A DNA stretch of 64,000 nt from the NCBI GenBank assembly GCA_015063625.1, contig SVTT01000004.1, positions 2,223 to 66,222 of the forward strand. The letters run 5' to 3'. The notes under the pieces were generated by a model. The model did no database searches, was not told where the DNA came from, and saw only the letters and a program-made list of their open reading frames with translations. Positions 34,120 through 50,400 of the stretch are shown piece by piece. Position 1 is the stretch's first letter. Every line of letters begins with the position of its first letter. Origin of the DNA: Oscillospiraceae bacterium. Lineage in GTDB: Bacteria > Bacillota > Clostridia > Oscillospirales > CAG-272. The position numbers and the translations under genes are program-made.

Positions 34120-34135
34120 TCGGTGGGGTGACGGA

Positions 34136-35284: not shown

Positions 35285-35328
35285 AGCGTCCACTGACATA
35301 ACATCAATTTTACAAGGAGAAAACGATC

Positions 35329-35956: not shown

Positions 35957-38146
35957 ATGAACGAAATGGAAATGATGCTGACCACCTTTGTGAGTCAGGC
36001 TAAAGACGCAATCAAAAACGAGCAATACGACGTGGCATCGGAGCGCCTTGTCAATGCGCAGAAGTGCGCCCTGCTGCTGGCGAAAAAATTTGAGGGAAGT
36101 GCACGCGAAAAGTATCTTGCCTCGGCAAAGAGCCTGAAGGCGCTTTACGAGCAGGTGCTGGCAAAGAGCGCAAGCGTAAAGAATACGCCCACCGCGCCCA
36201 CCGCGCCCACTGCCGCCCCCTCCGCCCCCGTCACGGGGGGGGCACCCCAAAAGGACAGTGCGGGGAGCAGTGCGCCTGCACGGGCATCGGGTAATGAGGG
36301 CGGCGCGTACGTCCCTCCAAAGCGGAACGATGCACTCAGCCCGCTGTACCTTTCCGACTATATCGGTCAGCCGGGTGCGGTCATGGCAGTGCGCGATCTG
36401 ATCACCGCGGCACGCCTGAAGAATGCGGCAATGCCTCACCTGATCGTATACGGTTCGCACGGTCTTGGAAAGACCACCTTCGCCAAGATCATTGCCAACG
36501 AGATGCGCGCCAAGTTCACCGAGATCAACGTCTCCAAGATCAATCCGGCGGAAATGATCGCCATTCTGAAAAAATTGCAGCCCAAGGAGATCCTGTTTAT
36601 CGACGAGATCCATACCCTGCCGCTTTTGGTGGCGGAATCTATTCTTTATTCCGCCATGCAGGATGGGCGCATTACCTATACGGTGGGTAAGGGACAATTT
36701 GCCAAGACCGAAACGCTGGAGCTGCCGCCCTTCACACTGATCGGCGCGACCACCGAGATCGGTAAGCTGGCAAAGCCCTTTACCCAGCGTGCCATTCAGG
36801 TAAGACTGGAGGAATATACCGACGAGGTGCTTTCGGGCATCATCTCGGGCTCCTTCTACAAGCTTGGCGTGAAGATCACTCCCGAGCGGGCATTGGTGAT
36901 CGCCAAGCGCTGTCGCAACAACCCCAGAGTTGCGAACAGCATGGTCAAGCGCATCTCGGATAAGGCACTGGTGCGCTATGCCAAGATCAACAATCTTGAA
37001 ACCTTCGGCGCCTTTGATTCGGTCGATGCCATCCGTAAGCTCGGCATCGAGGTATCGGATCAGGTGATCGCAGAATTCTTTAAGGAAAACGGTATCGACG
37101 AGCACGGACTTGAAAACGGTGACAGAGAGCTGCTGCGCATGATCATTCATCGCTATCACGGCGGTCCTGTCGGCATTGATACGCTCGCGCGTGCCATGAA
37201 CGAGAGCAACAACGTGCTTGCTCAGAAATATGAGGCGTACCTGATCAAAAAGGGTATGCTGCGGGTAGATCGTGACGGTCGTGTCGCCATGGCGGCGGCA
37301 TACGAGGCACTGGGTCTTCCCGTGCCCCCCGAAAAGAGGGGAGAGCAGGCGGGCGAAAAGGAGCCTGCCGCGACCGAGGAAAAGAAATCCAAGTATGACA
37401 AGCGCACCGTGATCGTGTCGCACGTTGCCGAGGAACTGAAGTGCAAGAAGGTGGAGGACCTGATCGTCTATCCTTCGAACGTCAGAACCGTCAGCGAATC
37501 GCTTGACGAGCTCTTCCCCGACGTGGAAAAGCCCTATGAGGCAGAAACACGGCACTTATGTGAGCTTGAGCTTGACTTTGACACGCACAAGCGCATCCTG
37601 ATCTGTGATTCCTTCCTTGAAAGCCGCTTTGCCACGATGATGGCATCGGTTGGCTTCCTGCACGATATCAAGGCGCAGACACTGGAGATCCCCTATATCT
37701 CCCAGGAGCTTGCCAACAGAAGATATTTCCCGGATTTTGTGGTCAAGGACAACAAGGACCGCATTGCGGTCATCGAGATGAAGAACTTCGATATGCTGTC
37801 CTACCATCTCAACATTGACAAATACGAGCATCTCATGCGTTATTGTGAGCAAAAGGGATACGGCTACGCCGAGGTGGCAAAGGAGTACGATGCCGATACC
37901 TACGTATCGGTGGAAATGCTCAAGAGCGCCCCCGTTGACCGTGAGCTGGAGCAGTTCATCATTGAACGGATCGAGAAGAACGGCAATGAAACGGGCGAGG
38001 GCATGTTCCGCGAAAAGGACTTTGCCGATTACGTTGCCGCGCACGGAAAGACCGATCGGAAAAAGCTCTATACCGTGCTGCTCAATAACCGTGCGCTCAA
38101 AAACGTTGACCGTATCGGCAACGATATGAAGATCGTGATGAATTAA
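35957..38146 (+). CDS. three-domain protein: N-terminal MIT-like domain, RuvB-like AAA+ ATPase, C-terminal PD-(D/E)xK nuclease-like domain
   Basis: MIT-like helices (QYDVASERLVNAQKCALLLAKKFEGSAREKYLASAKSLKALYEQVL); RuvB signature (GSHGLGKTTFAKIIANE, LFIDEIHTL, PPFTLIGATT, RNNPRVANSMVKRI); C-terminus has E...PDFVV...IAVIEMK acidic/lysine motif spacing of PD-(D/E)xK nucleases. Confidence 0.6.
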   Translation: MNEMEMMLTTFVSQAKDAIKNEQYDVASERLVNAQKCALLLAKKFEGSAREKYLASAKSLKALYEQVLAKSASVKNTPTAPTAPTAAPSAPVTGGAPQKDSAGSSAPARASGNEGGAYVPPKRNDALSPLYLSDYIGQPGAVMAVRDLITAARLKNAAMPHLIVYGSHGLGKTTFAKIIANEMRAKFTEINVSKINPAEMIAILKKLQPKEILFIDEIHTLPLLVAESILYSAMQDGRITYTVGKGQFAKTETLELPPFTLIGATTEIGKLAKPFTQRAIQVRLEEYTDEVLSGIISGSFYKLGVKITPERALVIAKRCRNNPRVANSMVKRISDKALVRYAKINNLETFGAFDSVDAIRKLGIEVSDQVIAEFFKENGIDEHGLENGDRELLRMIIHRYHGGPVGIDTLARAMNESNNVLAQKYEAYLIKKGMLRVDRDGRVAMAAAYEALGLPVPPEKRGEQAGEKEPAATEEKKSKYDKRTVIVSHVAEELKCKKVEDLIVYPSNVRTVSESLDELFPDVEKPYEAETRHLCELELDFDTHKRILICDSFLESRFATMMASVGFLHDIKAQTLEIPYISQELANRRYFPDFVVKDNKDRIAVIEMKNFDMLSYHLNIDKYEHLMRYCEQKGYGYAEVAKEYDADTYVSVEMLKSAPVDRELEQFIIERIEKNGNETGEGMFREKDFADYVAAHGKTDRKKLYTVLLNNRALKNVDRIGNDMKIVMN

Positions 38147-38158
38147 CGTGGTTATGAC

Positions 38159-39112
38159 ATGAATAAGACTTTTTATAAACGCAAGCAACTGCCAAAGGTC
38201 TTTTTTGACAGACATATGCAGGTGCGCTCCTATGCCTACGGCAGCGAGGTCCATGCGCGTTTTCTTGAGTGGCAGCGTGACTATGTAAACGCAAGGGGTG
38301 GCACGGGCGAAAAGCTGATCATTGCGGCACAAAGCAGCATTTACGGTGTGGGGGATACCGCACACGCAAGGGTGGGTGATGCCTCGGTGCTTCCTCCGCT
38401 GCTCGTTGACGGCATGCGCTTCACGGCGGATGCCGACGGCTGGGTGTCGATCGGCGGCTCTCGCACCGCACTGAATCTCGGGCTTGAATTGAAGGCATGG
38501 GCACTTCTCACTCTGAGTGAACGGCAGGCAAAGCGTCAGCTGCTTTGCGTGATCGGTAAGCCCAACGGCGTCGATTGCCTCAAGCTCTCCTTGTACCCCG
38601 TTTCCCGACGCGGCGTTGATGAGCATGCCGAGCAGTCGCTCGATATGGAGCATACCTTGAGTGCCGAAAGCTTTTTGATCTGCCTTGGCAGACACATGTT
38701 TGTCGTGCATAACACACAGCTCCATTATTATTACTATCACCCGGAACGGGGTGGGCTTGAGGAGGTTGCCATCGGTGGCGATCTGCCCTGCGCCGAGGCA
38801 CCCGCCTGTCGGCAAGTGCTTCCCCGTGTAGTGACCAATACCGCGGGGTATGTATTCTGGATGTCGGGGGATACGGTATACGGCTTTCCTGTCGGCTATC
38901 CGAGGCGGCTGCTCCGCATTGAGTGTGACGCAAGGGAAACGCTCTCGGGCATCACCTGCGTCGGCGAGGCACTGCTCGTTTACCGCAAGAGCAAAAACAC
39001 CTCAAGGCTCTCCTGTGTACGCTATGTCAAGGGACAGGGCGGCGAGCTGATCGGCACGCCGCTTGACGAAAATGCGCGTCGGATGTACGAGGGGGCAAAG
39101 GAACGGCGATGA
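38159..39112 (+). CDS. hypothetical protein (317 aa)
   Basis: ORF tightly packed between the RuvB-like gene and the SNF2 helicase; no family recognised. Confidence 0.5.
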   Translation: MNKTFYKRKQLPKVFFDRHMQVRSYAYGSEVHARFLEWQRDYVNARGGTGEKLIIAAQSSIYGVGDTAHARVGDASVLPPLLVDGMRFTADADGWVSIGGSRTALNLGLELKAWALLTLSERQAKRQLLCVIGKPNGVDCLKLSLYPVSRRGVDEHAEQSLDMEHTLSAESFLICLGRHMFVVHNTQLHYYYYHPERGGLEEVAIGGDLPCAEAPACRQVLPRVVTNTAGYVFWMSGDTVYGFPVGYPRRLLRIECDARETLSGITCVGEALLVYRKSKNTSRLSCVRYVKGQGGELIGTPLDENARRMYEGAKERR

Positions 39113-39163
39113 AACAGACAATGATATTTACAAAGTGGCAATACCACCAAGGAGGCAATGGTT

Positions 39164-42100
39164 ATGATCGATAAGAATGACGTCAAAATGCCTGTACAAC
39201 GGGAAAATATGGAGTCCATGCTCGGCGATAAGGAGCAGGTGCGAAAAATAGAGGACCTTCTCGATATGGTCAGTGAGGTGGAGAACAAGCAGGAGCTGCG
39301 TCTGAAATCCGACTACTATTCGAGATTCCATTGGTTCGGCGCCTCTGCGGGGAAAAGCGATAAGAGCTATTTTTCCTATCAGGAGCAGGCGGTCTACGAC
39401 TTTATCTTCAATCTGAATAAGAGTGGTATCCTTTCCGACCAGGTCGGTATGGGTAAGACCATTGAGGCAGGCATGATCATCAGTGAGCTTGCCAGCCGTA
39501 ACGAGCTTCGCTCTCTGCTCATCATCGTGCCCAACGAGATCATGGCGCAGAAATGGGAGTACGAGCTTGCCAATAAATTCGGCATCAAGCCCTACCGCAG
39601 AACCGTCAACGGTGTAGAGGAGATCTATCCCGACGTCAAGGCGCTGCGCAATTTTGACGACTTTTGCAAGTGCGTCTTCGAGTGCCTTGCCGAGGAGAAG
39701 TTTGTTGAGCTTTACGAGCATCAGTTCAAGCACAAATATAAGGCAGCCCCCGGCGCAAAGGATACGCTTGACGGGCTGATCCGCGGCTTCATCAATGACG
39801 ATATCCGCGAGGCGGTAGAGATGATCAACCGCGGTCTTGAGGCAAACGAGATCGAGGGCATCGAGGTCGTATTCGACGGCAAGAAATATGCGATCAAGGG
39901 CACCTCCTTCGAAAAGGCGTATACCTACGATGACGGAGGCGAGATCGCCCGCTTCCTCAACGGCAGACAGAATCAGAGCATGCTGGAGAACACCATCAAC
40001 AACGCCTTCTTCGTCAAGCAGTACGAGCGCCTTGTGAAGCAGGAGCTGAACGGTCTTTATACGCTGATCGGTGAGTATTTCACCACCGTTCCCGAGGAGA
40101 TCTCCTCGATCGCCGAAAGCATGTCCAACCGCTATCCCATCCTGGTCATTCCGATCTCCTATTCCGAGAACAAGGGGGACAAGGTGGTGCATCATCAGTT
40201 CCTCAACCGCACGCTGCTGCCCGAGATCAAGAATTACAAGCACAAATATATTATCCAGGACAAAAACGATCATATCGACGAGATCTATGAGAACTACCGT
40301 ATCATCGATTTCTTCATTGACGTGGCATACCAGACCCTGATCGTCGATGAGGTGCATGATTACATCGACGTTGCCTCCAAGATCGATCGCAATCAGTTCC
40401 ATAAAAACCAGGGCTACGCCAAGTTCCCCTCCAAGGAATACGACCGCTTTGAGCTCTTTGACGATTACTACTTTATCAAGAAGAGCAGCCTTTACAAAAA
40501 GCTCAAGACCCTCTCGGATAAGGCAAGCCGAAAGATCTTCCTCACGGCAACGCCGATCAAGTCGGACATGGTCGACTTCTATTTGCTGACCCTGCTTGCC
40601 AGTAACAAGGACGCTGATGCCTATAAGCGCGTCAGCATCAACCTTGACCAGGCATATCCCTTGAGCGAGGACCGCGAGGAGGCGATCGCCAACCTCTACA
40701 ACACCTTCAAGGCGTGTGTGGAGTACAATGCTGCCAGAAACTTCTGTGACCGCCACAGTGACTTCACCAGACGCGAGCGCAGTGATACGGGTGCCGAGAT
40801 CGGCAGATTCGTTTATCCCTATTTCAACAACTCCTTCCTTCTCACGACCACCGACGAGCGCGCCGTGAAGGATTATCTTCTCAGCCAGATCAGCTATATG
40901 TCGATGGAGGAGGTCGTGCTGGAGCTGATACTTTCCTACAATGCCGAGAAAAATGACAGCTCGAGCAGCGATTTTGACATCAAGAACGTCATGAAGGAGC
41001 TTTGTGAGCTGCTGTCCTACCCCGATAACGAATACCGTATTCTCAGCCTCCAGACCCGCGTGGTGTTCAGAAGCCTTTTCAATAACAGCATCAAGATCCG
41101 CTTTGAGGAGGATTTTACCCAGAACGGCAAGCCCATCAAGCGCATCAGACAGCTGCTTGAGCTGGAGGACGGTGCGAGAAAATGGAACAAGACCTATCAC
41201 AGATACGGTATCCGTCATACCCGTCACCAGACCTACAATCTCAGTAACTGCAAGGAGCTGCAAAAGCTCAGCCAAAACCGCATTGAGCGCTATAAGAACC
41301 TGCCCGTCTGGCCCAAGCGTGACGGCAAGGTCATTTACCTCGTGCGTGACGATATCTTCTTTGACTGTCTGCTTGACGTGAAGCGCCCCTGCGAGGCAAC
41401 CAAGCAGAGCGTGATCCGCATGGAGGATCTGCCGAACTTTGACCGTCTGATCGGAAGCGAGGCAGAGAAGAAGGAGCGCTTTGAGAGCGCAACGGCGATC
41501 TTCAATTACATCAACGATTCGATGAGCGGCGGCGTCCCCGGGACGCACGAGCCTGCCAGTAGCCGTTACGAGTCGGTCGATCTTGACGATGCGGGCATGG
41601 TCGATTATAAGCTTGCTCTTGTCAATAAGCTGATGCTGGGCAGAGAAAAGGCGCTCGGCTCGATCAGTAATAAGGTGCTACTGTTTGCCGAGAACAACCG
41701 TGATGAGATCGTGGAATGGTTCAAGTACCAGAAGTGTGCTCCCCTTTATTCGGGCGAGACGTTGGATGACAAAAAGGTGCAGACCTATCGCGAAAAGTGG
41801 CGCAGCTATGCGGTGGATACCGTGGGTGATGAATGGCACGTTTCGGAGGATGCAGAGGACCTGAGCCGTTATGACGGCAATCTGCTCATCATCATCGACC
41901 CGAAGCGCTATGAAAAGGGCGTTGACCTGCAAAAGGCAGATACCATCATCAACTTTGATATCAACTATGACCCGCTGAAGATGGAGCAGCGTATCGGTCG
42001 TATCGACCGTATCCGTCCGACGGGCAAGGTGCCTCAGATCAACATCGTGTCCTTCGTTCCCATGAACGACATGAGTGGCTTTGTCATCAACTTTTTCGCC

Positions 42101-42991
42101 AACGAGCTCAAGATGTTCACGCAGTGGATGGGTGAAACCACGGGTATCGTATCGGTGGAGGAGGACGGCACCTCCAAGAAGGACGGCGAGGATGTGTCCT
42201 TCGAGGGAAAGGTCTACGGACTTGAAGCCTACTATAAATACATGTACGAGCTTTGCAACCGCGGCGTGACCGATGCTGAGATCGAGAAGATGGCGGCAGA
42301 CTTCTCCAAGAAGTTTGGCGTGGATAAGAATATGGCAGAGATCGATTTCCGCTTCCTCAAGACGGTTCGCGGACAGTTTGATGCCATCTTCCGCAATTCG
42401 ATCTCTCCTCAGCGTGCAGGCTACACGGTGTCCAACAAGCCGGGCACCAGGCTGATGCGCTTTAACAGCTCTATGGGTGTATTTATGCCTTGTAGCGCCG
42501 CAGACTGTAAGTCCTGCCCCAACAGCAAGGACTGTAAGGCTCAGGGCAGCGGCATGCGCAACCAGTACAGCAGCTTCCGTCGCGGCGTGGAGGAATTCTT
42601 TGATAACAGCATCAAGTATTATCAAAAGGAAACCGAGACGTTTCTCAAGCGCCTCAGCGACCGCGTCATTTCGGGCAGTGACGGTGAGCATATCAAAAAC
42701 GAGCTCAACGCACGCACCAATCTCTTTAAGCAGAAGGCAAAGGAGATCAAGGCGCTGCTTCCCGGCGTGTCAAGCGATGCATTCGTTATGCCCTTCGCCG
42801 ATTATCTGAAGATCTTCAACCCCATCAAGGAGCTTTATTGGGATACGGTGGTCTATAAGTACCTCGGACTTGTCATCGAGCAGTTCCATAAGCAGTGTGA
42901 CAGCGTTCTTAAGGGCGCGCGCCTGTTTGAACGCTTTGTCAAGACCCTCTCGATCGCAGACTTTATGAAGAACATGGAAGGAACGGTATAA
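39164..42991 (+). CDS. SNF2-family helicase (1277 aa)
   Basis: motif I DQVGMGKTIEAG, motif II LIVDEVHDY, motif III FLTATPIKS, C-terminal helicase domain with QRIGRIDRI (motif VI); AAGGAGG RBS 8 nt upstream of ATG 39164. Confidence 0.8.
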   Translation: MIDKNDVKMPVQRENMESMLGDKEQVRKIEDLLDMVSEVENKQELRLKSDYYSRFHWFGASAGKSDKSYFSYQEQAVYDFIFNLNKSGILSDQVGMGKTIEAGMIISELASRNELRSLLIIVPNEIMAQKWEYELANKFGIKPYRRTVNGVEEIYPDVKALRNFDDFCKCVFECLAEEKFVELYEHQFKHKYKAAPGAKDTLDGLIRGFINDDIREAVEMINRGLEANEIEGIEVVFDGKKYAIKGTSFEKAYTYDDGGEIARFLNGRQNQSMLENTINNAFFVKQYERLVKQELNGLYTLIGEYFTTVPEEISSIAESMSNRYPILVIPISYSENKGDKVVHHQFLNRTLLPEIKNYKHKYIIQDKNDHIDEIYENYRIIDFFIDVAYQTLIVDEVHDYIDVASKIDRNQFHKNQGYAKFPSKEYDRFELFDDYYFIKKSSLYKKLKTLSDKASRKIFLTATPIKSDMVDFYLLTLLASNKDADAYKRVSINLDQAYPLSEDREEAIANLYNTFKACVEYNAARNFCDRHSDFTRRERSDTGAEIGRFVYPYFNNSFLLTTTDERAVKDYLLSQISYMSMEEVVLELILSYNAEKNDSSSSDFDIKNVMKELCELLSYPDNEYRILSLQTRVVFRSLFNNSIKIRFEEDFTQNGKPIKRIRQLLELEDGARKWNKTYHRYGIRHTRHQTYNLSNCKELQKLSQNRIERYKNLPVWPKRDGKVIYLVRDDIFFDCLLDVKRPCEATKQSVIRMEDLPNFDRLIGSEAEKKERFESATAIFNYINDSMSGGVPGTHEPASSRYESVDLDDAGMVDYKLALVNKLMLGREKALGSISNKVLLFAENNRDEIVEWFKYQKCAPLYSGETLDDKKVQTYREKWRSYAVDTVGDEWHVSEDAEDLSRYDGNLLIIIDPKRYEKGVDLQKADTIINFDINYDPLKMEQRIGRIDRIRPTGKVPQINIVSFVPMNDMSGFVINFFANELKMFTQWMGETTGIVSVEEDGTSKKDGEDVSFEGKVYGLEAYYKYMYELCNRGVTDAEIEKMAADFSKKFGVDKNMAEIDFRFLKTVRGQFDAIFRNSISPQRAGYTVSNKPGTRLMRFNSSMGVFMPCSAADCKSCPNSKDCKAQGSGMRNQYSSFRRGVEEFFDNSIKYYQKETETFLKRLSDRVISGSDGEHIKNELNARTNLFKQKAKEIKALLPGVSSDAFVMPFADYLKIFNPIKELYWDTVVYKYLGLVIEQFHKQCDSVLKGARLFERFVKTLSIADFMKNMEGTV

Positions 42992-45666
42992 TGGCAACAT
43001 CCGCATTTGAAAAAAATATCGGCGGCGAATATTCCTGTACGCTTTCCGCCCGTTTTCGCGAGCGAGGGGGCAGGCTGTTCTTGGTCGATTATTCCAAGCG
43101 TTGCGCGGCGTCGGCACTGACCTCACTGTTCGGCGAGGGCACGTACGGCTCGTTCCTGCTTCTCGTCAGCAATCCCGAGGTCGCCGCTACCTTCAAGACC
43201 GTTCTCGCACCTCTTTTCTCTGATCTTGCGGTCATTGATTCGGAGAGTGCTCTGAACGGTGCGCTGGGGAATTGCGGCAGAACGGCAGGCGAGCTGCGCT
43301 CGCATGCCGAGCGCCTTGCGCAGTCCAAGCCGCATCTGATCGTCGTTAAGGCGGCAGGCGGCAAGGAGATCTTCAATATGCCCCTTGCGGCAGACGATGC
43401 CAAAAGCGGTGTTTATGGGGGAGAGAGCTGCGGAAAGCTGCTCTTCTCGGATCTGCTTGCCGAGGGCAATTATGAGTTTGTTGCCGTAGACGACGTGCAT
43501 TCCTATCTTTTGCTGGAGGAGGCAGATCGCGAGCACCGCGTGGCACACCCTGCCGCCGCATACGAGCGACTTGATTTCCTCGGCAAAAATTATTACACCC
43601 CCATCTCCTCCTCTCTGAAGCGGCTCAAGCAGCTGACCACGGGTGCCAAGGGTGTCGTGGTAATGTCGGATACCGTGCTGGAGAAAAACGCCGTCGAGCT
43701 GTTTGCCGTTCTCGAGCTGCTGGATACGCGCTTCTCCGCCCGTCGCGTCAAGGAGATCGTTAAGCCCGTGGCGGATCACTTTTCCTTTGACGGTGCAAGC
43801 GGCTACGGGGGCGCGTGCGATATCATCTATAACGCCGTGACCTACGGACGTGACGAGGAGAGCATCCTCAGTGCCTGCCTGCAAAGGACCAAGGGCATCG
43901 CACAGCGCGTTCCCGGCGATATCAATACCATGCGCGACTATCTGACCGAGGCAATTGACTATCTCTCCTTTGAAGAGGTCTTCCTCATGGTCATGCATAC
44001 CCGTATGACCGACAAGCAGAGCACGAGATGTCCCTCGATCGATACGGTCATCAACAATATGCTCAACAGCTATGACGAGATGGCGGCGTGCTTTGCCGAC
44101 ATGTTCTTCAACAACCCCGTCAAGGGTGAGCTTGAAAGAGCCGTTTCGACCCCGTATGTGCTGGATATGTCGGCAAAGGAGATGAGTGCCGTCCTCTCGG
44201 TCTTCCTAAAATACGGCGCCTACCATTATATGAATAACGCCCCTGAGCGCCTCGGCGTCATTCGTCTGAAGCGTGACGATTCGGGCTTTGAGTATTTTGC
44301 AAGAAGATACGCGAAAAACGAGATCGAGGATGCACGCTGCTTCTCCGTGCTGGGAGAAGGCAGTGATGACGTATGCAAGTGCGTCGAGCTGAAGCGCCTT
44401 GCCGACGGCAAGGATGCCGATGCAAGCGTGACCTCGCCGCTGGTGATCGTGACCGACCGCGACCCTGCCTCGCTGCAATCGCAGGTCAAGAGCGCGCTGA
44501 CGGGCTACACGATGCTTCCCGGTATCGATGCGATCAAGCATGGTGCAGGCGCAGAGGCGGTGCTGATGAGCGTGAAGCAATTCCGTGAGACGCCCTATTC
44601 CGCAGAGCTCGGCTCGGTGGTGTTCTTTGACGCCGTTGCTGACGTGGTGCTCGCAAAGCGCCTGATCGCAAAGGCACAGGAGGTCACCAAGGGCAAGGTG
44701 TTCTTGCTTGCCTCCTACGGCAATATGGACGGTGTGCTTGCCGACGAGTGGCAGGTAGAGCTGAAGGCGGATGACAGGATGCTGCCCTTTGCCTCCTCGG
44801 AGATCTCGCTCAAGCACGGTGCCCGTTACGATTATGCCGATGTGGTAGATCGCATTGACCGTATCTATGGGGATCTGCTGGTCACGGTGACCAACGGGAC
44901 GCAGGAGCGAGTGAAGGAGCTGCCTGGCGCGATCAATAATCTTCTGGTCAGCTTTGCGACGAGAGCGACCTTTGATCCCGAAATGATGGCGCTCGATCTT
45001 GAGTATACCGCCAAGCTCGGCAAATATTTTGACGGCGTATTCCGCAACACCGCTTCGGTTGGCAATCACGGCGAGCATTTCGTGGTGAGAGCCACCGATT
45101 ATGCCCCCGCGGTCGGCGGCAAGGTCCCTGTGCCCAAAACGCTCGGAGAGTCGGTCGGCGTGTTCTTTAACACCTGTGCCAAAATGCTTCGGCACGAATG
45201 TGATATCATTCATAACAACTGTGCCGACTGTGCCGATTATCAAAAATTTTTAGCCAACCGCTTTGATGAGCTTGAGAGCTCGATGAAGGAATTCTTTGAG
45301 ATGGCAGATCATTACGTTGCCAAGGCAAGAGATCTTCGCTACCAGATCCAGCATGACGATATCATCATCGGTCACGGTGATGATGAGGATGACGTGGGAC
45401 TGAGTGCGGAGCTCATCAAGAGCCATCAGACGGCAGCCGTCAACGCGCTGCGTCAGCTGCAAGGCAGACAGGCGGGAGCGAGCAAGGTCTTTCATGCCGA
45501 ATACAGTCATGTTCTCGCCATCCGCGAGGCGGTGTATCAGGTTCTGCGCAAGGTCCTGCGCAAGTACTACAAGGCGGTCATGATGGTCTTTGCCGACTCT
45601 ACGGCTTTGGCGAAAAGCGGACTTGTCGGCGCTCGCGAAGCGGTGCGTGCGCTTGACAGGACCTAA
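42991..45666 (+). CDS. large hypothetical protein (891 aa) with a C-terminal Cys cluster
   Basis: start overlaps the SNF2 stop (TAATG), indicating translational coupling; CxxxCxxxxxxCxxC cluster near residue 730. Confidence 0.55.
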   Translation: MATSAFEKNIGGEYSCTLSARFRERGGRLFLVDYSKRCAASALTSLFGEGTYGSFLLLVSNPEVAATFKTVLAPLFSDLAVIDSESALNGALGNCGRTAGELRSHAERLAQSKPHLIVVKAAGGKEIFNMPLAADDAKSGVYGGESCGKLLFSDLLAEGNYEFVAVDDVHSYLLLEEADREHRVAHPAAAYERLDFLGKNYYTPISSSLKRLKQLTTGAKGVVVMSDTVLEKNAVELFAVLELLDTRFSARRVKEIVKPVADHFSFDGASGYGGACDIIYNAVTYGRDEESILSACLQRTKGIAQRVPGDINTMRDYLTEAIDYLSFEEVFLMVMHTRMTDKQSTRCPSIDTVINNMLNSYDEMAACFADMFFNNPVKGELERAVSTPYVLDMSAKEMSAVLSVFLKYGAYHYMNNAPERLGVIRLKRDDSGFEYFARRYAKNEIEDARCFSVLGEGSDDVCKCVELKRLADGKDADASVTSPLVIVTDRDPASLQSQVKSALTGYTMLPGIDAIKHGAGAEAVLMSVKQFRETPYSAELGSVVFFDAVADVVLAKRLIAKAQEVTKGKVFLLASYGNMDGVLADEWQVELKADDRMLPFASSEISLKHGARYDYADVVDRIDRIYGDLLVTVTNGTQERVKELPGAINNLLVSFATRATFDPEMMALDLEYTAKLGKYFDGVFRNTASVGNHGEHFVVRATDYAPAVGGKVPVPKTLGESVGVFFNTCAKMLRHECDIIHNNCADCADYQKFLANRFDELESSMKEFFEMADHYVAKARDLRYQIQHDDIIIGHGDDEDDVGLSAELIKSHQTAAVNALRQLQGRQAGASKVFHAEYSHVLAIREAVYQVLRKVLRKYYKAVMMVFADSTALAKSGLVGAREAVRALDRT

Positions 45667-45680
45667 CAGAGGAGGAACGT

Positions 45681-47372
45681 ATGGCTTTAACTGATATAGC
45701 AAGACAACTAAAGGAAACATTTGAGGGCTTTGGCGGCGCAGAGCACCGTGATGAGCTGAAGCAGTACCGTGAGATCTACGGTGATGCCGAATGCGTCCAG
45801 ATCGGTGAAATGGATTATATCGTCATCAACGACGTTTATAAGAGCAAAGAGTACGCCGACGTGCCGGAGAGCACCAGCCCGCTGTTCTTCAACAGCATCA
45901 ATAATTCCTATGCGATCATTGATGCCGAGACCTCCTCGACTCTGATTGACGAGGTCTATTCGCGTGTCACCTACATGCAGCGCGTCTGCCGCGTGGATAC
46001 CGCCCCCGACAAGGAGGAGATCCGCCGTTCGCTGCGCGATCTGATCGGAAAGGGGATCACCCTTTCGGATGTTCTGATCAAATCCGAGAGCACCGATTCC
46101 AATAAGGCAAACATCTTCCAGTGCCAGCTGATCAAGGATACCGGCGTATCCGCCGTGCCCGACGTTTATAGCTTTGTTCTGAAAAACGGTGAGATCAAGG
46201 AGATCGCCGAAAATATCATGCGTCAGATCCGTCGCTCGGGTGAGGTCAACCTTCTTAAGGACAGAAATGTGCTGGAGGAGAACAAGGCCGCGATCCAGCA
46301 GGCGGTGTTTGATAAGTACATCAACTCGGACGTGGATATCCAGGGCATCACGGTCAAATCCATCTTCGAGATCAGCATGACCTTCCTCAACATTCACGTC
46401 ATGCTGACCGACGAGGCAAAGAGAAGGGGCGTGTTCAACACCTCCTATCTTGCCAGCGAGAACAATGAGTTTGAGGCGCTCAATGCCAACATTCATGTCT
46501 GTAACTGCGGTCATGAGCTGGTTGACGTGAAGGATCCGAGCAAGATCTACCGTCTGCACGTCAACACCGATGCCTACGACGAGGAGTTTTCCACCGAGAA
46601 CCAGCGCGTGCATGCGGTGGGCTGTGAGGATTGCCTTGTCAAGTGCGAGGAATGCGGCGGATGGCACTTCAATTATGAAAAGTTCATTGGCTCGGATTAT
46701 TACGACAAGGTCAAGCTCATGCCGGGCAGAGGCTTCATCAAGGGGCTTCGTACCATCGATGTGAACTACTGCTCCTGCCGAGAGGGCATTGAGTGGATCT
46801 ATGACGAGCGCACCGGCTCCGAAGAGGAGCACGACGTCATTCCTCTGAAGAAGATGGCGTTCATCAACTATGCCAACGAGCAGATCGCCTCCTATGATGA
46901 CTACATGGCATATTATGAAAAGAGAAGGGGCAACAAGAAGATGGATGCCCTTGAGGAGGTCAAGCTTGCCAAGCGCGTTCGCGCCGATTTCAAAAAGCAC
47001 CTGGCGAGCAAGTTTGATATCGACGTAAAGGATATCAGGATCTCCTCCTCGGATAAGTGCATGACCTGCAGCATCTGCGGCGGCAATTATTACAGAGGAA
47101 CCGTTGCTTCGGATTATGACGATATCTACCGTTGTGAGATCTGTGATGAGCTGATTTCGGAAAAGCGCAGCAGCGTCACGAGAATCGACGGCATCGTATT
47201 TATGAATCACAAGGTGAAGAACCGTTCGGTGATCAGTAAGTATATCGTTACCAAGTTCGGCAACCTGAAAAAGCTATCCTCCTCCTTCCTTGAGATCGAG
47301 CCCTCCGTCGAGCCCCAAGAGGCACCTGTCGAGGCAGAGGTCGAGCCCGAGGAGCAGGTGGCCGAGAATTGA
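45681..47372 (+). CDS. hypothetical protein (563 aa) with multiple Zn-ribbon-like CxxC pairs
   Basis: GAGGAGG RBS; several CxxC...CxxC pairs (CNCGHE, CEDCLVKCEECGG, CMTCSICGG, CEICDE). Confidence 0.55.
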   Translation: MALTDIARQLKETFEGFGGAEHRDELKQYREIYGDAECVQIGEMDYIVINDVYKSKEYADVPESTSPLFFNSINNSYAIIDAETSSTLIDEVYSRVTYMQRVCRVDTAPDKEEIRRSLRDLIGKGITLSDVLIKSESTDSNKANIFQCQLIKDTGVSAVPDVYSFVLKNGEIKEIAENIMRQIRRSGEVNLLKDRNVLEENKAAIQQAVFDKYINSDVDIQGITVKSIFEISMTFLNIHVMLTDEAKRRGVFNTSYLASENNEFEALNANIHVCNCGHELVDVKDPSKIYRLHVNTDAYDEEFSTENQRVHAVGCEDCLVKCEECGGWHFNYEKFIGSDYYDKVKLMPGRGFIKGLRTIDVNYCSCREGIEWIYDERTGSEEEHDVIPLKKMAFINYANEQIASYDDYMAYYEKRRGNKKMDALEEVKLAKRVRADFKKHLASKFDIDVKDIRISSSDKCMTCSICGGNYYRGTVASDYDDIYRCEICDELISEKRSSVTRIDGIVFMNHKVKNRSVISKYIVTKFGNLKKLSSSFLEIEPSVEPQEAPVEAEVEPEEQVAEN

Positions 47373-47401: not shown

Positions 47402-50400
47402 ATGACAAACAATAATGTGAATTCTTCGATCCTTTCGGAACACAGAAGTGTCGTCAAAACAAGATATATTCTTGCGATCTTCAACTTCCTTGCGATCTTT
47501 GCAGGAACGCTTGTGACGCTCTTCTTCGTGTCCCGAAGGGGTGTTTACGATGTGATCTTAAAGCATCTGTATGTTCTGGCGGTCATCAATATCCTCCAGA
47601 TCATTCTCTGTATCACCGAATACGTGTTGAGAAATCACAAGGGTATCAGCTATAAGCGGATGCCGCTTTTGACCTATGGCGTCGGTGTGCTCTGGCTGCT
47701 GGCGCTGGTCGGCGAGCTGGTTTCGGGCACCATGAAGCTGGGAACGCTCAGAACCGACCTTGCGATCATTGCAGGCATCCAGCTCTTCGTTGCCATTATG
47801 ACTTACCTCACCTGGCCGAGCATGGACAGGCGTGCGATCGATGCCATGATTCGCCCGAGTGTCAGAGGTGACGAGAAAAAGAGGGCAAAAAAGGCAAGAT
47901 CCTTTGTGCGGAGGTATGCCGTGCTGTTCGTGGTGATCCTGCTCGCGCAGGTGGGCACGCTGGTTGCTTACAAGATGCCCCCCACGTTCTACGATCTTTT
48001 CTCGGACACCCGTGCGCTGGAGTACGAGCTGAACGAGGAGGGTGACGGCTATATCGTCACTGCGGTCTACAAGGGAACCTCTACCAAGGTCAATATCCCT
48101 GCCACCTATAACAATCTGCCCGTCGTGGGCATTGCCAAGGGTGCACTAATCGATGACAATTTGCTGGAGAATTACCAGTATAACGAGATCGTGTTCGGCA
48201 CGCCCACCACCGTCGAGGGTGAGAGCGTGCTGGTCAGCAATCTGCAATATCTTGAGGATGGCGCGATTGCCAACAACAAGATCGAAACGCTGACGCTTCC
48301 CGCGTCGCTCAAGAGCATCGGTGTCAACGCCGTGCGAAGCAGCTCGCTGCGCACCGTTGAGTACTGTGCCGCTGCCGATTTCCGCTTTGAGAGCTTTGCT
48401 GAGTGTACGGCGCTTTCCAAGGTGGTCATGTCGGGTGACAGCGTGGGCAAGATCATTTCGCTCAACGGAATGGATGCCGATCGCGTTGTGATCCAGGTCA
48501 ATAAGGATATCTATAACCGTTACCGCGAAAACAACCTGAACTACGTCAAGAGCTTCCGTCCCATTCTTCCCGACGACGAGTTCTGCGTGGATTTTTACAC
48601 CAACTGTGATTATTACATCGACAGTATCTTCTGCAAGATCGGCGAGAGCGTCAGTCTGAAGGTCACCGACCTGAAGAAGGCAAGCGCCAACGATAAGGGG
48701 CTTACCGAGGATACCGCAGCATATCTTGCCGACCACCATGAGCTTGGTACCGACGGTGCCAAGGCGCACAGTGCCTTCCGCGGCTGGTATTACGATGCTG
48801 CCTTTGTGTCGGAGTGCGATATTTCCGATACCACGGCTCTGGTTCTTACCGGCAACACCTCGCTCCACGCCAAGTGGATCGACGAGTATAAGGCAGTGGT
48901 CGACTGGGGCGTGATGCCCGACAGAACGGGCGTAAGGGAGCTGTATTGGACCGATGAGGATGTCTGCACCTTCCCTGTGGTTACCGACCGTGTCGGTTAT
49001 TCGCGCGGCGTGGTCTGGAGTGTTGACGATTCCACCGAGCAGGTCTTCACCTCGGCAGGAATCAAGAAGGATGTCACGCTGAAGGCAACCTGGCTGCTGG
49101 ATGCCCCTGTCATTTCGATCGCACACACCCTCAGCGGCGCGGCAAGCGGCGAGGAAACCACCCAGAACTATGCCGCCTTCGTTTACGATGAGCATAAGGT
49201 GCTTTCGCTGTCCGCCAACCGCACGCATCCGCTTGACGGACGCAGTCTGGACGGAAGGGTCACCGATTATACCTATGAGTGGATCAGGCAGGGGAGCACG
49301 GAGCCCGATAAGGCTCCTTCCGTCAACCTGCAAAACGTCGCGGACACCGGTATTTATACGCTGCGCGTGACGGTACATTCGCCTTATGGCGAAACGGCGA
49401 CCAGCGAGGTCACCTACGAAGCGCGCATTGATAAAAAGCCCATTGATATCGGCACGGCAGAGCTTTTGAATGAAAGCATGGTGTACAATGCCACCAACAG
49501 GACGCTGGTGATGGGGGGCACGCTCAACACCGAGCGCATCGACGTTCTTTATAAGTATTACAGCAACGTCGGCGGCGTGAGAAGCTTTGTTTGTGACAAT
49601 GTGGGCGTGATGAATGCGGGCACCTATACCGTCGAGGCAGTCCTTTCCAAGAACAATGCGGCGGAGGCGGCAAACTATGAGACCCGCACCCTGACTGCGA
49701 CCATGCAGATCACCCCGAAGCCCCTTTCCTTCATCAGCTGGTCGAATGACAGCTTTGTTTACAACGGCACCGAGCGCACGGTCGTCATGAACGTGGGCGG
49801 TATTCTCGGCAGCGACGTGGTGGAAATCACCTATCGCGGCAATAAGGAGACTGACGCGGGCAGCAACTATACCGCCGTTGCCGTCGGGGTCACCAATCCC
49901 AACTACTCGTTTGCGGCGATCGAGGCAACCAATGACAATACGCTGATCTGGCGCATCGATCCCAAGCCCGTCACGGTCAAGAACTGGCAGACCGACGGCA
50001 GCGACTGGTCCTCCTTCAGCGTTGTTTACGATGGGCGTCAGCATAGCGTTTACGCTGTGCTGGAGGGTGCCATCGAGGGGGATGTCGTCAGCTTTGTCTA
50101 CGATCATGTCAATCACAGCGTCAATGAGCAGATCAATGCAGGTCAGTACGTGGCGTCCATCATCGGCACCACCAACTCCAACTACGTCTATGACGCCGAT
50201 GCCGTCGATGCAAGAGCAACACAGGTGTGGGAGATCACGAGAAGAACGCTCACGATCAACTATCTGTCGTCGGGCACCTTCTATTACAACGGACAAAATC
50301 AGGGTATCGGCGTGCAGATCCTGAACTTCTGCGGCTCCGATGCTGAGAATTTCAATATAGAGATGCTGGATCTTGCCGACAATACCGCAACGGCAAGATT

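Follow-up and report, generated by a model that had tools for sequence, protein, structure and literature searches.

Several described systems offer points of comparison for the locus analysed here. Zorya consists of the MotAB-like membrane complex ZorAB, of ZorC, and of ZorD, an SNF2 protein with an Mrr nuclease domain, while RuvB is the motor of Holliday-junction branch migration. As regards membrane remodelling, passages of two reviews hold that bacteria lack ESCRT components beyond PspA/Vipp1, as well as Vps4-like ATPases (PMC10936438, PMC7619361), and a passage of the second describes the shedding of DNA-carrying vesicles by the archaeal ESCRT-III/Vps4 system. Makarova et al. 2024 (PMC10936438) describe, in one passage, an archaeal ESCRT variant with an SPFH-coiled-coil-zinc-ribbon protein, and in another the PspA-YdjGHI system of B. 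subtilis, in which the SPFH protein YdjI recruits PspA and YdjG is a zinc-ribbon protein. The operon presented here, carried by uncultured gut and rumen Clostridia, brings together ESCRT-III-like proteins, a motor-nuclease fusion, an SNF2 ATPase with its apparently dead twin, and giant surface proteins, and it matches no described system.

Extent and composition of the predicted operon

An original prediction, made on the window (the whole stretch of 64,000 nucleotides that was analysed), had proposed a co-transcribed module of an SNF2 helicase and three large unknown proteins at 38159-47372, downstream of an ESCRT-like module. The four genes are real, in that their ORFs lie on the + strand at 38159-39112, 39158-42991, 42991-45666 and 45681-47372, are tightly packed, with gaps of -1 to 45 nt, and are conserved in related loci. 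The limits drawn around them were too narrow: the four genes are the proposed DNA-handling core of a larger conserved operon of 13 genes and ~27.6 kb, with predicted co-transcription from ~31469 to ~59138, and the earlier boundaries omit the RuvB-TnsA fusion upstream and the giant LRR/MBG and second LRR proteins downstream. The features are as follows.

31469-31497, + strand: predicted operon promoter, TTGACA-17-TGcTATAAT (hexamers matched 12/12, with the extended -10 TG)
31580-32506, + strand: opening gene of the operon, coding for an SPFH/Band-7 protein whose C-terminus carries a zinc ribbon (Pfam Band_7_1, Band_7, Zn_Ribbon_1)
32533-33441, + strand: 302-aa helical protein with the N-terminus MGLFGY (hhalign)
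33472-34119, + strand: 215-aa ESCRT-III-like protein with the C-terminal amphipathic helix DELAELRKMVGM (hhalign)
34136-35284, + strand: AAA+ ATPase of SpoVK/CbbX/EccA type with a putative MIT-like (TPR-like) N-terminal three-helix domain (Pfam AAA, AAA_lid_6)
35329-35916, + strand: 195-aa ESCRT-III-like protein with the N-terminus MGLFKSK (AF2, Foldseek, hhalign)
35957-38146, + strand: 729-aa fusion of a putative MIT-like N-domain, a Pro-rich linker, a RuvB AAA+ motor, a winged helix and a TnsA-type PD-(D/E)xK endonuclease (Pfam, NCBIfam)
38159-39112, + strand: 317-aa accessory protein (no family matches)
39158-42991, + strand: 1277-aa SNF2-family ATPase, predicted to be active (Pfam domains, invariant motifs)
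42991-45666, + strand: 891-aa pseudo-SNF2, predicted catalytically degenerate paralogue of the preceding helicase (BLASTP, hhalign)
45681-47372, + strand: 563-aa Cys-rich protein with three predicted metal sites, strongly conserved
47402-54499, + strand: 2365-aa membrane protein with a conserved N-terminal polytopic TM domain, an LRR-like domain and a long array of MBG/Ig-like repeats (translation)
54607-55395, + strand: 262-aa protein, cytosolic-looking, present in most loci
55412-59092, + strand: membrane protein with a cytosolic N-domain of ~290 aa, TM segments and an extracellular BspA-type LRR array (Pfam LRR_5, E 4e-183; translation)
59097-59138, + strand: 19-bp stem-loop, likely end of the operon

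The predicted sigma-70 promoter follows the strong terminator of a MATE gene (31226-31259) and falls within the longer of two candidate first ORFs; the first gene is therefore taken to start at 31580, where GAAGGAG precedes the start codon, and not at 31454. The earlier claim of linkage and apparent co-transcription with the ESCRT-like genes appears sound, since no credible terminator was found between 31260 and 59097, terminator-like matches within the operon being at chance level (18 observed against 16.2 expected). Shine-Dalgarno-like sequences precede most of the genes.

The membrane module and the motor-nuclease fusion

The SPFH-zinc-ribbon protein that heads the operon has orthologues in four related loci (L006, L014, L015, L016). 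For the three small proteins encoded next, on either side of the AAA+ ATPase gene, the label "ESCRT-like" survives in part: it fits the 195-aa and 215-aa proteins and fails for the 302-aa protein, which matched neither ESCRT-III nor the 195-aa family (E195) by hhalign and which has instead a paralogue of 260-273 aa in some loci (99.2% to that family, X260). The AF2 model of the 195-aa protein (pLDDT 73) holds five helices in all (7-48, 52-107, 114-145, 158-166, 184-194), the last a MIM-like helix behind a disordered linker, and fits the ESCRT-III pattern of an alpha1-alpha2 hairpin with alpha3-alpha5. Its top Foldseek matches are CdvB and CHMP2A-CHMP3, with probabilities of 0.97-1.0 and E values of only ~0.1, and hhalign places it at 88% against an ad hoc set of CHMP/Snf7 sequences. 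The 215- and 195-aa proteins are paralogues, the former matching the E195 family by hhalign at 95.8% (E 8e-9, 175 columns) and reaching 84% against an ad hoc alignment of CHMP/Snf7 sequences; both carry short C-terminal amphipathic helices behind a disordered linker. Neither matches Pfam Snf7 or PspA_IM30, nor any PDB sequence profile. Membership of the two proteins in the ESCRT-III superfamily is thus likely but not proven. The 195-aa family comprises 189 homologue clusters.

The AAA+ ATPase scores 274, 240 and 238 bits against the SpoVK, EccA and CbbX profiles of NCBIfam; the sporulation protein SpoVK is the closest, the 274 bits for spore_V_K lying below the cut-off. A Vps4-type identity was considered and rejected, as the AAA+ domain groups with SpoVK/EccA/CbbX and Pfam MIT gives no match. 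The N-domains of this ATPase and of the RuvB-TnsA fusion are homologous to each other (hhalign 96.2%). That of the fusion reaches 89% against an ad hoc set of Vps4 MIT sequences, that of the ATPase being connected to them only indirectly, and Pfam yields for this domain no MIT match and only TPR, below threshold. We regard the MIT-like assignment of both N-domains as a weak prediction.

In the fusion, Pfam recognises RuvB_N (140.8 bits), RuvB_C (56.2) and AAA_lid_4 (40.1), and the RuvB equivalog level is reached (NCBIfam NF000868, 287.7 bits against a cut-off of 282); the RuvB part is 67-72% identical among loci. The nuclease domain matches Tn7_TnsA-like_N at 33.4 bits (Pfam cut-off 26.5), and its residues E555, D593, E607 and K609 are invariant in 10 orthologues of the fusion.

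A TnsA-type nuclease above the Pfam cut-off, in company with AAA+ ATPases, raises the question of a Tn7-like or other mobile element, in which these proteins would serve transposition and the SNF2 block would be cargo. The genomic position varies by locus, as such an element would have it, and a 24-nt direct repeat (31314-31337 and 63896-63919; 0 copies expected by chance) brackets the cluster. The repeat, however, also encloses apparently ordinary genes, among them one for a PLP-dependent enzyme, and its right-hand context ends with the window. Against a mobile element stand also the fusion of the nuclease to RuvB and an MIT-like domain, and the conserved, operon-like internal gene order. In the cluster and window there is no TnsB/DDE transposase, TnsC, TniQ or integrase, and no transposase or other mobility gene lies within or adjoining the cluster. 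We consider a mobile element very improbable. Tn7 itself was rejected, the TnsA-like N domain standing alone in the window with no TnsB or TnsC, and the domain looks like the recruitment of a PD-(D/E)xK nuclease domain rather than a transposon. A phage- or plasmid-borne element was rejected as well: searches of 50,697 phage records and 72,556 plasmid records returned no match for the 563-aa protein, the 563-aa and 195-aa families were not found in IMG/VR viral contigs, and PHROGs gave no matches. From the absence of the family in these collections we take the operon to be cellular.

The SNF2 pair, its partners and the surface proteins

That the 1277-aa protein belongs to the SNF2 family of SF2 helicase-like ATPases, as had been proposed, is borne out by profile and motif: SNF2-rel_dom (39.6 bits, cut-off 24.9), ResIII (32.7, 22.5) and Helicase_C (31.5, 23.5) all exceed their Pfam cut-offs, and motifs I (GMGKT, 97-101), II (DEVH, 397-400), III (TATP, 463-466) and VI (QRIGRIDR, 944-951) are invariant across 5 orthologues. 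Between the helicase motifs lie large and unique insertions of ~250 and ~370 aa, and the protein ends with a 4-Cys cluster and a conserved tail; it is 60-78% identical among loci. The TAATG overlap with the next gene also proved exact: the stop TAA occupies 42989-42991, and its last A doubles as the first base of the ATG at 42991. Of 10 related loci, 8 retain this 1-nt overlap, L012 overlaps by 4 nt and L011 has a gap. Through the overlap, the 891-aa gene is predicted to be translationally coupled to the SNF2 gene.

The original prediction counted the 891-aa protein among three large unknowns. Here it did not hold, for the protein aligns with the neighbouring SNF2 ATPase over 773 columns (hhalign 99.3%, E 1.7e-20), and BLASTP gives collinear segments at E 1e-7 and 3e-5; the paralogy, predicted by sequence comparison, is firm. 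Where the ATPase has GMGKT the 891-aa protein has GEGTYGS, so that the Walker A lysine is missing; the histidine of DExH is not conserved, and the motif VI arginines are missing. By these degenerate motifs it is predicted to be an inactivated duplicate of the SNF2 ATPase. It evolves fast, at 29-42% identity among loci. For the 317-aa and 563-aa proteins the description as unknowns stands: neither they nor the 891-aa protein match Pfam, NCBIfam, PADLOC or PHROGs.

In the 563-aa protein, for which several zinc ribbons had been suggested, 12 Cys in CxC/CxxC pairs (C274/276, C315/318/322/325, C364/366, C463/466, C485/488) are invariant over 79 homologues, and three metal sites are predicted. The protein is 61-76% identical among loci, and its structure model is confident; the PDB holds no structural relative. 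The 317-aa protein evolves faster (38-48% identity); 60 relatives were found among 1.84 billion representatives, none informative, the gene is missing from the two most distant loci (L011 and L012), and no invariant residues of catalytic look were seen.

Downstream, the 2365-aa gene follows the 563-aa gene in every locus seen. The Pfam matches of its product to MBG_3 and LRR_5 are weak; the TM part is 43-70% identical among loci and the distal repeats 27-55%. The LRR_5 protein comes after the giant or the 262-aa gene in L002, L011, L012 and L013. To our knowledge, such giant surface proteins occur in no known defence system.

The nearest profile matches of the SNF2 ATPase are the defence helicases DrmD, DpdE and BrxH. 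A divergent member of DISARM, Dpd, BREX (BrxH), Hma or Zorya, its other genes lost or elsewhere, would explain the partial matches to DrmD (NF038317, 102.6 bits, cut-off 610, E 2e-29), DpdE (NF041062, 96.3 bits, cut-off 500, E 1e-27), BrxHI/II (77 bits), HmaA and ZorD (a marginal 23 bits over 74 residues). These matches cover motifs I-Ia and V-VI only, however, and lie far under the curated cut-offs, by 5-6 times for DrmD, DpdE and BrxH; those three matches, as well as that to RapA, the best PDB match (E 1e-7), are confined to residues ~70-145 and ~880-1000. PADLOC, run on the SNF2 ATPase and ten other proteins (the giant, 262-aa and second LRR proteins being scanned against Pfam or PHROGs only), found no system, and 0 of the 10 other proteins match components. 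DISARM was rejected with no DrmA, DrmB (DUF1998), DrmC (PLD) or DrmMI/MII among the proteins of the four genes and of those upstream (PADLOC, NCBIfam), Dpd with no DpdA (TGT-like), DpdB, DpdC or other Dpd match, BREX with no PglX, PglZ or BrxC, and Zorya with no ZorA, ZorB or ZorC (PADLOC for both). The operon genes encode no methyltransferase or PLD domain by Pfam, nor were a DUF1998, PglZ, TGT or MotAB-like protein found, and the conserved partners are wholly different in all loci. Descent from a named system is thus largely refuted and can be given hardly any weight; the earlier statements that neither a methyltransferase nor another partner known from a named SNF2 system accompanies the ATPase (Pfam, PADLOC, NCBIfam), and that no named system fits, were both upheld, PADLOC and NCBIfam matching the ATPase over generic helicase motifs only.

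Distribution, proposed function and relation to known systems

The homologues are not scattered or unlinked. Gene order is retained in every independent long metagenomic locus examined, to 38% identity, and linkage is conserved in metagenomes and MAGs of independent origin whose 563-aa proteins span 38-100% identity; in most loci the RuvB-TnsA fusion and the SPFH/ESCRT-III-like/AAA+ module precede the SNF2 block. The flanks are a MATE transporter, tRNAs and a PLP-dependent enzyme (ordinary genes) in the window, an integrase fragment, PTE and lipase in L014, an amylase and a TIR-LRR protein in L015, radical SAM in L016, and GNAT and a trypsin-like peptidase in L017. Because these neighbourhoods differ, the linkage is not inherited synteny. 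Modules also separate: L006 is without RuvB-TnsA, its AAA+ ATPase being fused to DUF4145 (with a weak sub-threshold HEPN-family match), and L015 and L017/18 have the membrane module and RuvB-TnsA without the SNF2 block, adjoining a cytosolic TIR_2+LRR_5 protein. Members of the family are rare: clustering at 90% identity leaves 120-189 clusters among 5.8 billion proteins. A genome scan of low sensitivity, which looked for no more than two exact peptide patterns, both from the fast-evolving 891-aa proteins, gave 1 match among 185,579 species genomes. Within the window the GC content of the cluster equals that of its flanks, and there is no known defence gene. The defence-island reading put forward earlier is plausible, with support from related loci only; the flanks in the window are ordinary.

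Our best explanation, held tentatively and at somewhat less than an even chance, is that these uncultured Clostridia carry a multi-gene conflict system not described before and associated with the membrane, in which a complex of SNF2, pseudo-SNF2 and the 563-aa protein would act with the nuclease on DNA where ESCRT-III marks the membrane. Sensing of a surface or envelope event, most likely phage attachment or DNA entry, would fall to the two membrane LRR proteins, and SPFH and ESCRT-III-like polymers would form at the sensed site. The C-terminal tails of the ESCRT-III-like proteins might then bring in the AAA+ recycler and the RuvB-TnsA nuclease through their MIT-like domains, while an SNF2/pseudo-SNF2 heterodimer, joined by the 563-aa protein as metal-binding subunit and by a variable 317-aa adaptor, would translocate on or remodel the incoming DNA to let the nuclease cut it. 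The parts that evolve fast, namely the dead paralogue, the 317-aa protein and the distal repeats at the surface, may confer specificity or take part in an arms race, and the slowly evolving SNF2, 563-aa protein and RuvB may form the enzymatic engine.

Observations bearing on a conflict role point in both directions. Conserved linkage, differing neighbourhoods, rate heterogeneity, invariant nuclease and SNF2 motifs, the firm pseudo-SNF2 paralogy, the N-domain common to both ATPases, the ESCRT-III-like fold, rarity, absence from the phage, plasmid and viral collections, defence helicases as the nearest profile matches of the SNF2 ATPase, and the modularity of L006, L015 and L017/18, which is typical of conflict systems, speak for it, support for a conflict role as such coming from related loci only. 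Association with defence genes amounts to two TIR-LRR neighbours, in loci without the SNF2 block; the weak MIT-like assignment and the Foldseek E of the ESCRT-III match also count against such a role, as do the empty PADLOC result, the giant surface proteins, and the missing mobility and defence genes and flank-like GC of the window. The very high conservation of SNF2, the 563-aa protein and RuvB also suits a housekeeping-like machine. A serious rival, though an unlikely one, is a lineage-specific cell-biological apparatus for ESCRT-III-like membrane fission in division, engulfment or budding, positioned by the membrane LRR proteins, in which RuvB-TnsA and the SNF2 pair would clear or resolve trapped chromosomal DNA. 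FtsK/SpoIIIE and the midbody nuclease LEM-3/ANKLE1 at eukaryotic abscission would be its analogues. Strong purifying selection on the three conserved proteins, a RuvB motor joined to a nuclease whose active site is intact, the proximity of the AAA+ ATPase to a sporulation protein, and the native GC and housekeeping flanks of a window free of mobility genes all accord with it, and an MIT-like domain on the nuclease would parallel the MIT proteins that a passage of PMC9477494 describes as recruited to ESCRT-III at abscission. Such a machine fits poorly with a rare and apparently patchy distribution, with genomic positions that differ between loci, with separable modules and a swappable effector (L006, L015, L017), with fast-evolving partners, and with the TIR-LRR neighbours at two loci.

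That DNA motors and a nuclease are obligatorily linked to proteins of membrane remodelling and to two surface proteins of very large size would also suit an apparatus for DNA export or exchange. In it, LRR/MBG adhesins would contact other cells, ESCRT-III/SPFH proteins would bud membrane vesicles or remodel the contact, and the nuclease and SNF2 pair would cut DNA and pump it into vesicles or across the contact; Sulfolobus, whose ESCRT-dependent vesicles carry DNA, supplies an archaeal analogy. We hold this to be improbable, as there are no relaxase, origin, coupling protein, competence or packaging genes, no presence of the module on plasmids, phages or viral contigs, and no sign of a DNA cargo; the reading proceeds by analogy throughout.

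Compared with Zorya, the proposed conflict system is alike in overall logic only: genes for a membrane component, an SNF2-family ATPase and a nuclease are linked, and the last two would act on DNA near the membrane. Here the nuclease is a separate RuvB-TnsA fusion instead of an Mrr domain on the SNF2 protein, Zorya has no ESCRT-III-like/SPFH module, pseudo-SNF2, Cys-rich 563-aa protein or giant LRR proteins, and no component is shared. DrmD of DISARM, DpdE of Dpd, BrxHI/II of BREX and RapA/HepA belong to the same helicase superfamily as the SNF2 ATPase, which differs from them in its two insertions, its Cys4 C-terminal region and the absence of their partner genes. The C-terminal domain of the 729-aa protein resembles Tn7 TnsA, down to the conserved E/D/K catalytic residues, but is fused to RuvB and an MIT-like domain and lacks TnsB, TnsC and TnsD/TniQ. 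With PspA-YdjGHI, for which we also draw on established knowledge, the operon shares an SPFH/zinc ribbon linked to members, here probable ones, of the ESCRT-III superfamily, implying a membrane-damage response; it differs in having no Pfam PspA_IM30, proteins closer to the CHMP/CdvB type, and AAA+ ATPase, nuclease and helicase partners. Literature searches turned up no ESCRT-like module with giant LRR proteins and an SNF2 block beside it. The likeness to archaeal and eukaryotic ESCRT-III lies in several small proteins whose helices follow the ESCRT-III pattern, with MGLF-type N-termini and C-terminal helices behind a disordered linker, and an SPFH-zinc-ribbon protein heads the operon much as an SPFH-coiled-coil-zinc-ribbon protein occurs in the archaeal variant. 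The module described here differs from these in being bacterial, in having a SpoVK/CbbX-type ATPase rather than Vps4, in carrying the ATPase N-domain also on a RuvB-nuclease fusion, and in sharing its operon with an SNF2 block and with giant LRR proteins.

The 317-aa, SNF2 and neighbouring genes and their predicted transcription unit

Four genes on the plus strand lie close together, with gaps of 45, -1 and 14 nt, and the compact block of an SNF2 helicase and three large proteins described in the original prediction is confirmed.

Genes of the four-gene block
38159-39112, plus strand, 317-aa protein
39158-42991, plus strand, SNF2 protein of 1277 aa
42991-45666, plus strand, 891-aa protein
45681-47372, plus strand, 563-aa protein

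The TAATG junction reported between the SNF2 gene and the gene of the 891-aa protein is real, and its 1-nt overlap is retained in eight of ten loci. The block belongs to a longer run of 13 closely spaced plus-strand ORFs, from 31580 to 59092, whose linkage is operon-like. Upstream, the gene of a MATE transporter ends in a GC-rich, 14-bp terminator (31226-31259), 3' of which a sigma-70 promoter with a 12/12 match and an extended -10 is found at 31469-31497. The earliest good start codon preceded by a Shine-Dalgarno sequence lies at 31580. Since this perfect promoter falls inside the longest ORF of the first gene, the SPFH gene, which begins at 31454, the true start is almost certainly the ATG at 31580 with GAAGGAG before it, in agreement with orthologue lengths of 297-324 aa. 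Terminator matches within the operon remain at chance level until 59097, including the stretch between the block and the ESCRT-like genes, where the original prediction likewise saw none, and a 19-bp stem-loop (59097-59138) lies directly 3' of the last LRR gene. Because no terminator above chance level separates the promoter from this stem-loop, a single predicted transcription unit of about 27.6 kb is the simplest reading. Minus-strand ORFs overlapping these genes were rejected, their translations being low-complexity antisense artefacts.

The window as a whole has a GC content of about 55% and is a segment of a bacterial chromosome, with housekeeping genes such as thrS, tyrS with a T-box leader, prfB-like, cmk, an IspH-S1 fusion and acetate kinase. 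The T-box leader (114 bits, 10871-11118, minus strand) stands upstream of the tyrosyl-tRNA synthetase gene (9564-10844, minus strand) and represents ordinary Firmicutes regulation. Phage, conjugation and integrase genes are absent from the window, and a prophage or ICE was rejected on these grounds. A 24-nt direct repeat, TCGGCGCC(C/T)TCGACGACCCGTTTT, is present in exactly two copies in the window (31314-31337 and 63896-63919; 0 expected by chance), both intergenic and together enclosing the whole cluster and three further genes, with the window ending 80 nt past the second; it may mark an att-like island border or serve as a shared operator. Adjacent genes for tRNA-Pro(GGG) and tRNA-Leu(CAG) (27538-27700) are situated some 3.8 kb 5' of the cluster, where GC is lower (0.49-0.52), with no integrase near the pair. 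Just past the putative terminator, a 618-aa protein (59165-61021) matches DUF6273 and, below threshold, DNA_meth_N (E 0.001); the related loci stop short of the corresponding position.

SNF2 protein, its inactive paralogue and their small partners

The 1277-aa protein contains SNF2-rel_dom, ResIII and Helicase_C above the Pfam thresholds, and motifs I, II, III and VI are invariant in five orthologues of 61-78% identity. Its lobes are split by unusually long insertions, of about 250 aa between motifs Ia and II and about 370 aa between III and IV, and four invariant cysteines (C1112, C1117, C1120 and C1126) are found in the C-terminal 300 residues. The nearest SNF2 profiles are those of DrmD, DpdE, BrxH and RapA, with matches confined to generic motif regions and scores five- to six-fold under the curated cut-offs.

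The 891-aa protein matches nothing in Pfam, NCBIfam, PADLOC or PHROGs, and its family profile found nothing significant among PDB sequences. BLASTP aligns it with its upstream neighbour SNF2 in two collinear stretches (E 1e-7 and 3e-5). When the orthologue sets of both proteins are compared profile to profile, the probability is 99.3% (E 1.7e-20) across 773 columns, in which SNF2 residues 273-1251 correspond to residues 51-869 of the 891-aa protein. The catalytic motifs have been lost: GEGTYGS, without the Walker A lysine, stands in place of the GMGKT of SNF2, the DExH box has kept no invariant residue but its first aspartate, and no motif VI is left. On the basis of this homology and these losses, the 891-aa protein is, as judged from its sequence, an inactivated duplicate of SNF2 translationally coupled to it, and the two make up an active/inactive SNF2 pair. 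The duplicate has an invariant Cys/His cluster of its own (C729, H735, C737, C744 and C747). Pairs of active and inactive members are known from eukaryotic remodellers and other ATPases; we know of none in bacterial SNF2 systems.

MBE6555157.1, from a MAG labelled Ruminococcaceae/Oscillospiraceae bacterium, has the same sequence as the 563-aa protein, whose 120 homologue clusters are all 540-680 aa long and all derive from Clostridia-type MAGs or metagenomes. Twelve cysteines of the 563-aa protein, arranged in CxC/CxxC pairs, are invariant, and an AlphaFold2 model built from 79 sequences is confident (pLDDT 84.7, pTM 0.72). Its N-terminal peptide MALTDIARQLK is nearly invariant; residues 1-14 (45681-45720; MALTDIARQLKETF) hardly vary in 79 homologues, which is unusual for a terminus and suggests a docking motif. 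For the 317-aa protein, an exhaustive HMMER search of 1.84 billion representatives returned 60 relatives, all orthologue-like; two odd matches, P0310 and P0311, are repeat proteins without informative domains. No catalytic-looking invariant residues were seen in it, and its gene is missing from the two most distant loci. Searches of Pfam, NCBIfam, PADLOC and PHROGs were empty for the 563-aa and 317-aa proteins and sequence-profile searches of PDB gave nothing significant, the latter protein having no informative remote match either.

Membrane module, surface proteins and related loci

The genes from 31580 to 35916 encode an SPFH protein with a zinc ribbon, a pair of ESCRT-III-like paralogues whose C-terminal helices are MIM-like, and an AAA+ ATPase bearing a MIT-like N-domain, a module that looks like a bacterial ESCRT-III system of the CHMP/CdvB type. 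The two ESCRT-III-like proteins, of 195 and 215 aa, are paralogues (95.8%), and the model of the former shows the five-helix ESCRT-III pattern, with the terminal helix beyond a disordered linker. Its best Foldseek matches are CdvB, CHMP2A-CHMP3, Asgard ESCRT-IIIB, Vipp1 and CHMP1B, at E values of only about 0.1; hhalign against CHMP/Snf7 sequences gives 84-88% for the two proteins, and the 195-aa family profile found only coiled-coil noise among PDB sequences. A 302-aa protein begins with MGLFG as the ESCRT-III-like proteins do, with no detectable homology to them, and its candidacy as an ESCRT-III found no support.

The 729-aa RuvB-TnsA fusion is RuvB at equivalog level (287.7 bits against a cut-off of 282), and in its C-terminal TnsA-type PD-(D/E)xK domain E555, D593, E607 and K609 are invariant in ten orthologues, so that the predicted nuclease site is intact. 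An N-domain is common to both ATPases: residues 1-70 of the fusion share homology with the N-terminal end of the SpoVK-type AAA+ ATPase (hhalign 96.2%, E 2.5e-9), and they run in register with Vps4 MIT sequences (89%, E 2e-6). This domain is probably MIT-like, a label preferred to MIT because in ten N-terminal segments Pfam, up to E 10, called no MIT domain and gave sub-threshold TPR only. No such domain was found in the SNF2, pseudo-SNF2 (891-aa), 563-aa, 302-aa and SPFH proteins.

Two LRR proteins of defined membrane topology follow the block. In the giant protein (2365 aa, 47402-54499), a conserved cytosolic ILSEHR motif stands ahead of the first TM segment, and a polytopic TM domain with 43-70% identity between loci, an LRR-like domain (49-64%) and faster-evolving MBG/Ig-like repeats (27-55%) follow in that order, while the product of the last gene carries its TM segments and its BspA-type LRR ectodomain after a cytosolic stretch of about 290 residues. 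The cytosolic N-domain of the latter (55412-56281) is Lys-rich and without a family match, and, with the ILSEHR motif, it is a candidate contact point for cytosolic machinery. Two contigs, L002 and L003, are 99.93% identical over about 20.8 kb; what separates them is a stretch of about 275 nt among the MBG repeats of the giant gene, and in one of them this gene is called as fragments. The difference points to a varying number of repeats or a frameshift, unless it is an artefact of assembly.

With homologues of the 891-, 563- and 195-aa proteins serving as anchors, thirteen further loci from independent metagenomes and MAGs were read (12 distinct, L002 and L003 being near-identical copies of one locus). 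Wherever the 563-aa gene is present and the locus extends far enough to reveal the genes around it, the order is the same, even where identity of the 563-aa protein has fallen to 38%; the homologues are thus linked rather than scattered.

Conserved gene order
5' part: [trypsin-like peptidase] - SPFH/zinc ribbon - [260-aa] - ~303-aa - ~215-aa - AAA+ (sometimes two copies) - ~190-aa - RuvB/TnsA
3' part: [317-390-aa] - SNF2 - pseudo-SNF2 - 563-aa - giant (1957-2705 aa) - [262-aa] - BspA-type LRR protein

Flanking genes
Window: MATE transporter, tRNA genes
L014: integrase fragment, PTE, lipase
L015: amylase, TIR-LRR protein
L016: radical SAM
L017: GNAT, trypsin-like peptidase

Since the flanks differ between loci, this order is not inherited synteny. 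Variants are also seen. The Clostridiales MAG SIG416 (locus L006) is without RuvB-TnsA, and its SpoVK-type AAA+ ATPase is fused to a C-terminal DUF4145 (L006 3243-4778), a region with a further weak, sub-threshold HEPN-family match. Loci L015 and L017/L018 have the membrane module and RuvB-TnsA without the SNF2 block, and in both a cytosolic TIR_2+LRR_5 protein adjoins the module. The system is therefore modular, and the SNF2/pseudo-SNF2/563-aa/giant-protein block is one exchangeable unit of it. The TIR proteins (L015 2218-5304; L017 12847-14574, minus strand) combine a zinc ribbon, a TIR domain and BspA-type LRRs and look like TIR-LRR pattern-recognition immune proteins. A trypsin-like peptidase gene lies 5' of the SPFH gene in both L006 and L017.

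Identities to the window's proteins across the same loci fall into two groups, SNF2 (60-78%), the 563-aa protein (61-76%) and RuvB-TnsA (67-72%) on one side and pseudo-SNF2 (29-42%), the 317-aa protein (38-48%) and the giant protein (36-53%) on the other; the enzymatic cores are thus slow and their partners fast. The families are rare, with 12 (891-aa), 120 (563-aa) and 189 (195-aa) clusters out of 5.8 billion, and absent from phage and plasmid collections (searched with the 563-aa protein) and from IMG/VR (searched with the 563-aa and 195-aa families). A metagenome scan with the 563-aa family added four short contigs and no more, and a genome scan with the 891-aa family found a single species genome, with patterns so restrictive that no reliable prevalence figure follows.

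Possible functions and comparison with known systems

The original module has proved real, linked and unnamed; it extends further than was stated, one of its unknowns is the dead SNF2 paralogue, and a role in defence is putative. A membrane-associated conflict system has, in our estimate, slightly less than an even chance of being correct. It is favoured by the swappable nuclease (TnsA in most loci, and another C-terminal domain, DUF4145, on the AAA+ ATPase of L006), the TIR-LRR proteins adjoining the module in two loci, the varying genomic positions of the cluster, the rarity of the families, the slow cores with fast partners, and nearest SNF2 profiles that belong to defence helicases. In such a system, the LRR membrane proteins would report an envelope event, the SPFH and ESCRT-III-like polymers would mark or repair the site, the AAA+ recycler and the RuvB-TnsA nuclease would be drawn in through their MIT-like domains by the tails of these polymers, and a complex of SNF2, pseudo-SNF2 and the 563-aa protein would translocate on or remodel incoming DNA, leading to cleavage. 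Against it stand the lack of defence or mobility genes in the window, the native GC and the very high conservation of the cores. In the main rival reading, which we regard as less likely, a resolvase-like RuvB-nuclease and an SNF2 translocase would serve a cell-biological machine that clears DNA from a site of ESCRT-III-driven membrane fission; DNA export by vesicles or cell contact, conceivable by analogy alone, is improbable.

A more specific proposal, put forward tentatively, is that CHMP/CdvB-like ESCRT-III polymers on an SPFH-zinc-ribbon scaffold form a membrane landing platform, on which MIT-MIM-type contacts recruit the AAA+ recycler and, uniquely, a RuvB-nuclease fusion, coupled to an SNF2/pseudo-SNF2/Cys-rich translocase and to transmembrane LRR receptors, which would be the first such bacterial machine. 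If so, it would be a receptor-triggered, membrane-localised system of DNA destruction or DNA clearance with no counterpart among known immune or division systems, and archaeal ESCRT components taken up in the gut or rumen may have contributed to its assembly. An archaeal ESCRT variant with an SPFH-coiled-coil-zinc-ribbon protein has been described (PMC10936438); the likeness to the first gene of the operon hints at an archaeal connection.

According to recent reviews, PspA/Vipp1 are the only ESCRT components that can be identified in bacteria, which also lack a Vps4-like ATPase (PMC10936438, PMC7619361). If the present reading is true, the operon would be a counter-example to both statements, the principle of MIT-MIM recruitment would become testable in a bacterium, and an SNF2 protein that is always accompanied by its inactive duplicate and by a metal-binding subunit of a new kind would represent a new architecture of prokaryotic DNA translocase. 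On the same condition, the coupling of transmembrane LRR proteins, ESCRT-III-like remodelling and nuclease/helicase effectors suggests either a new surface-triggered immunity or a new way to clear DNA from fission sites, and in either case it would concern the fields of phage defence, ESCRT evolution and chromatin remodellers. A first context would also be provided for three protein families, those of the 891-, 563- and 317-aa proteins.

Membership in DISARM, Dpd, BREX or Zorya was tested for each, by profile scans of the proteins of the block and of those encoded upstream of it, and rejected, which bears out the original view that no named system is matched, and a Tn7-like transposon was likewise tested and rejected. 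In the literature, no description was found of the ESCRT-SNF2-RuvB/TnsA gene combination. Zorya is the closest functional analogy, in logic only, with no component in common; the operon is rated as a system outside every described kind, its enzymatic domains (SNF2, RuvB, PD-(D/E)xK and AAA+) being individually ordinary.
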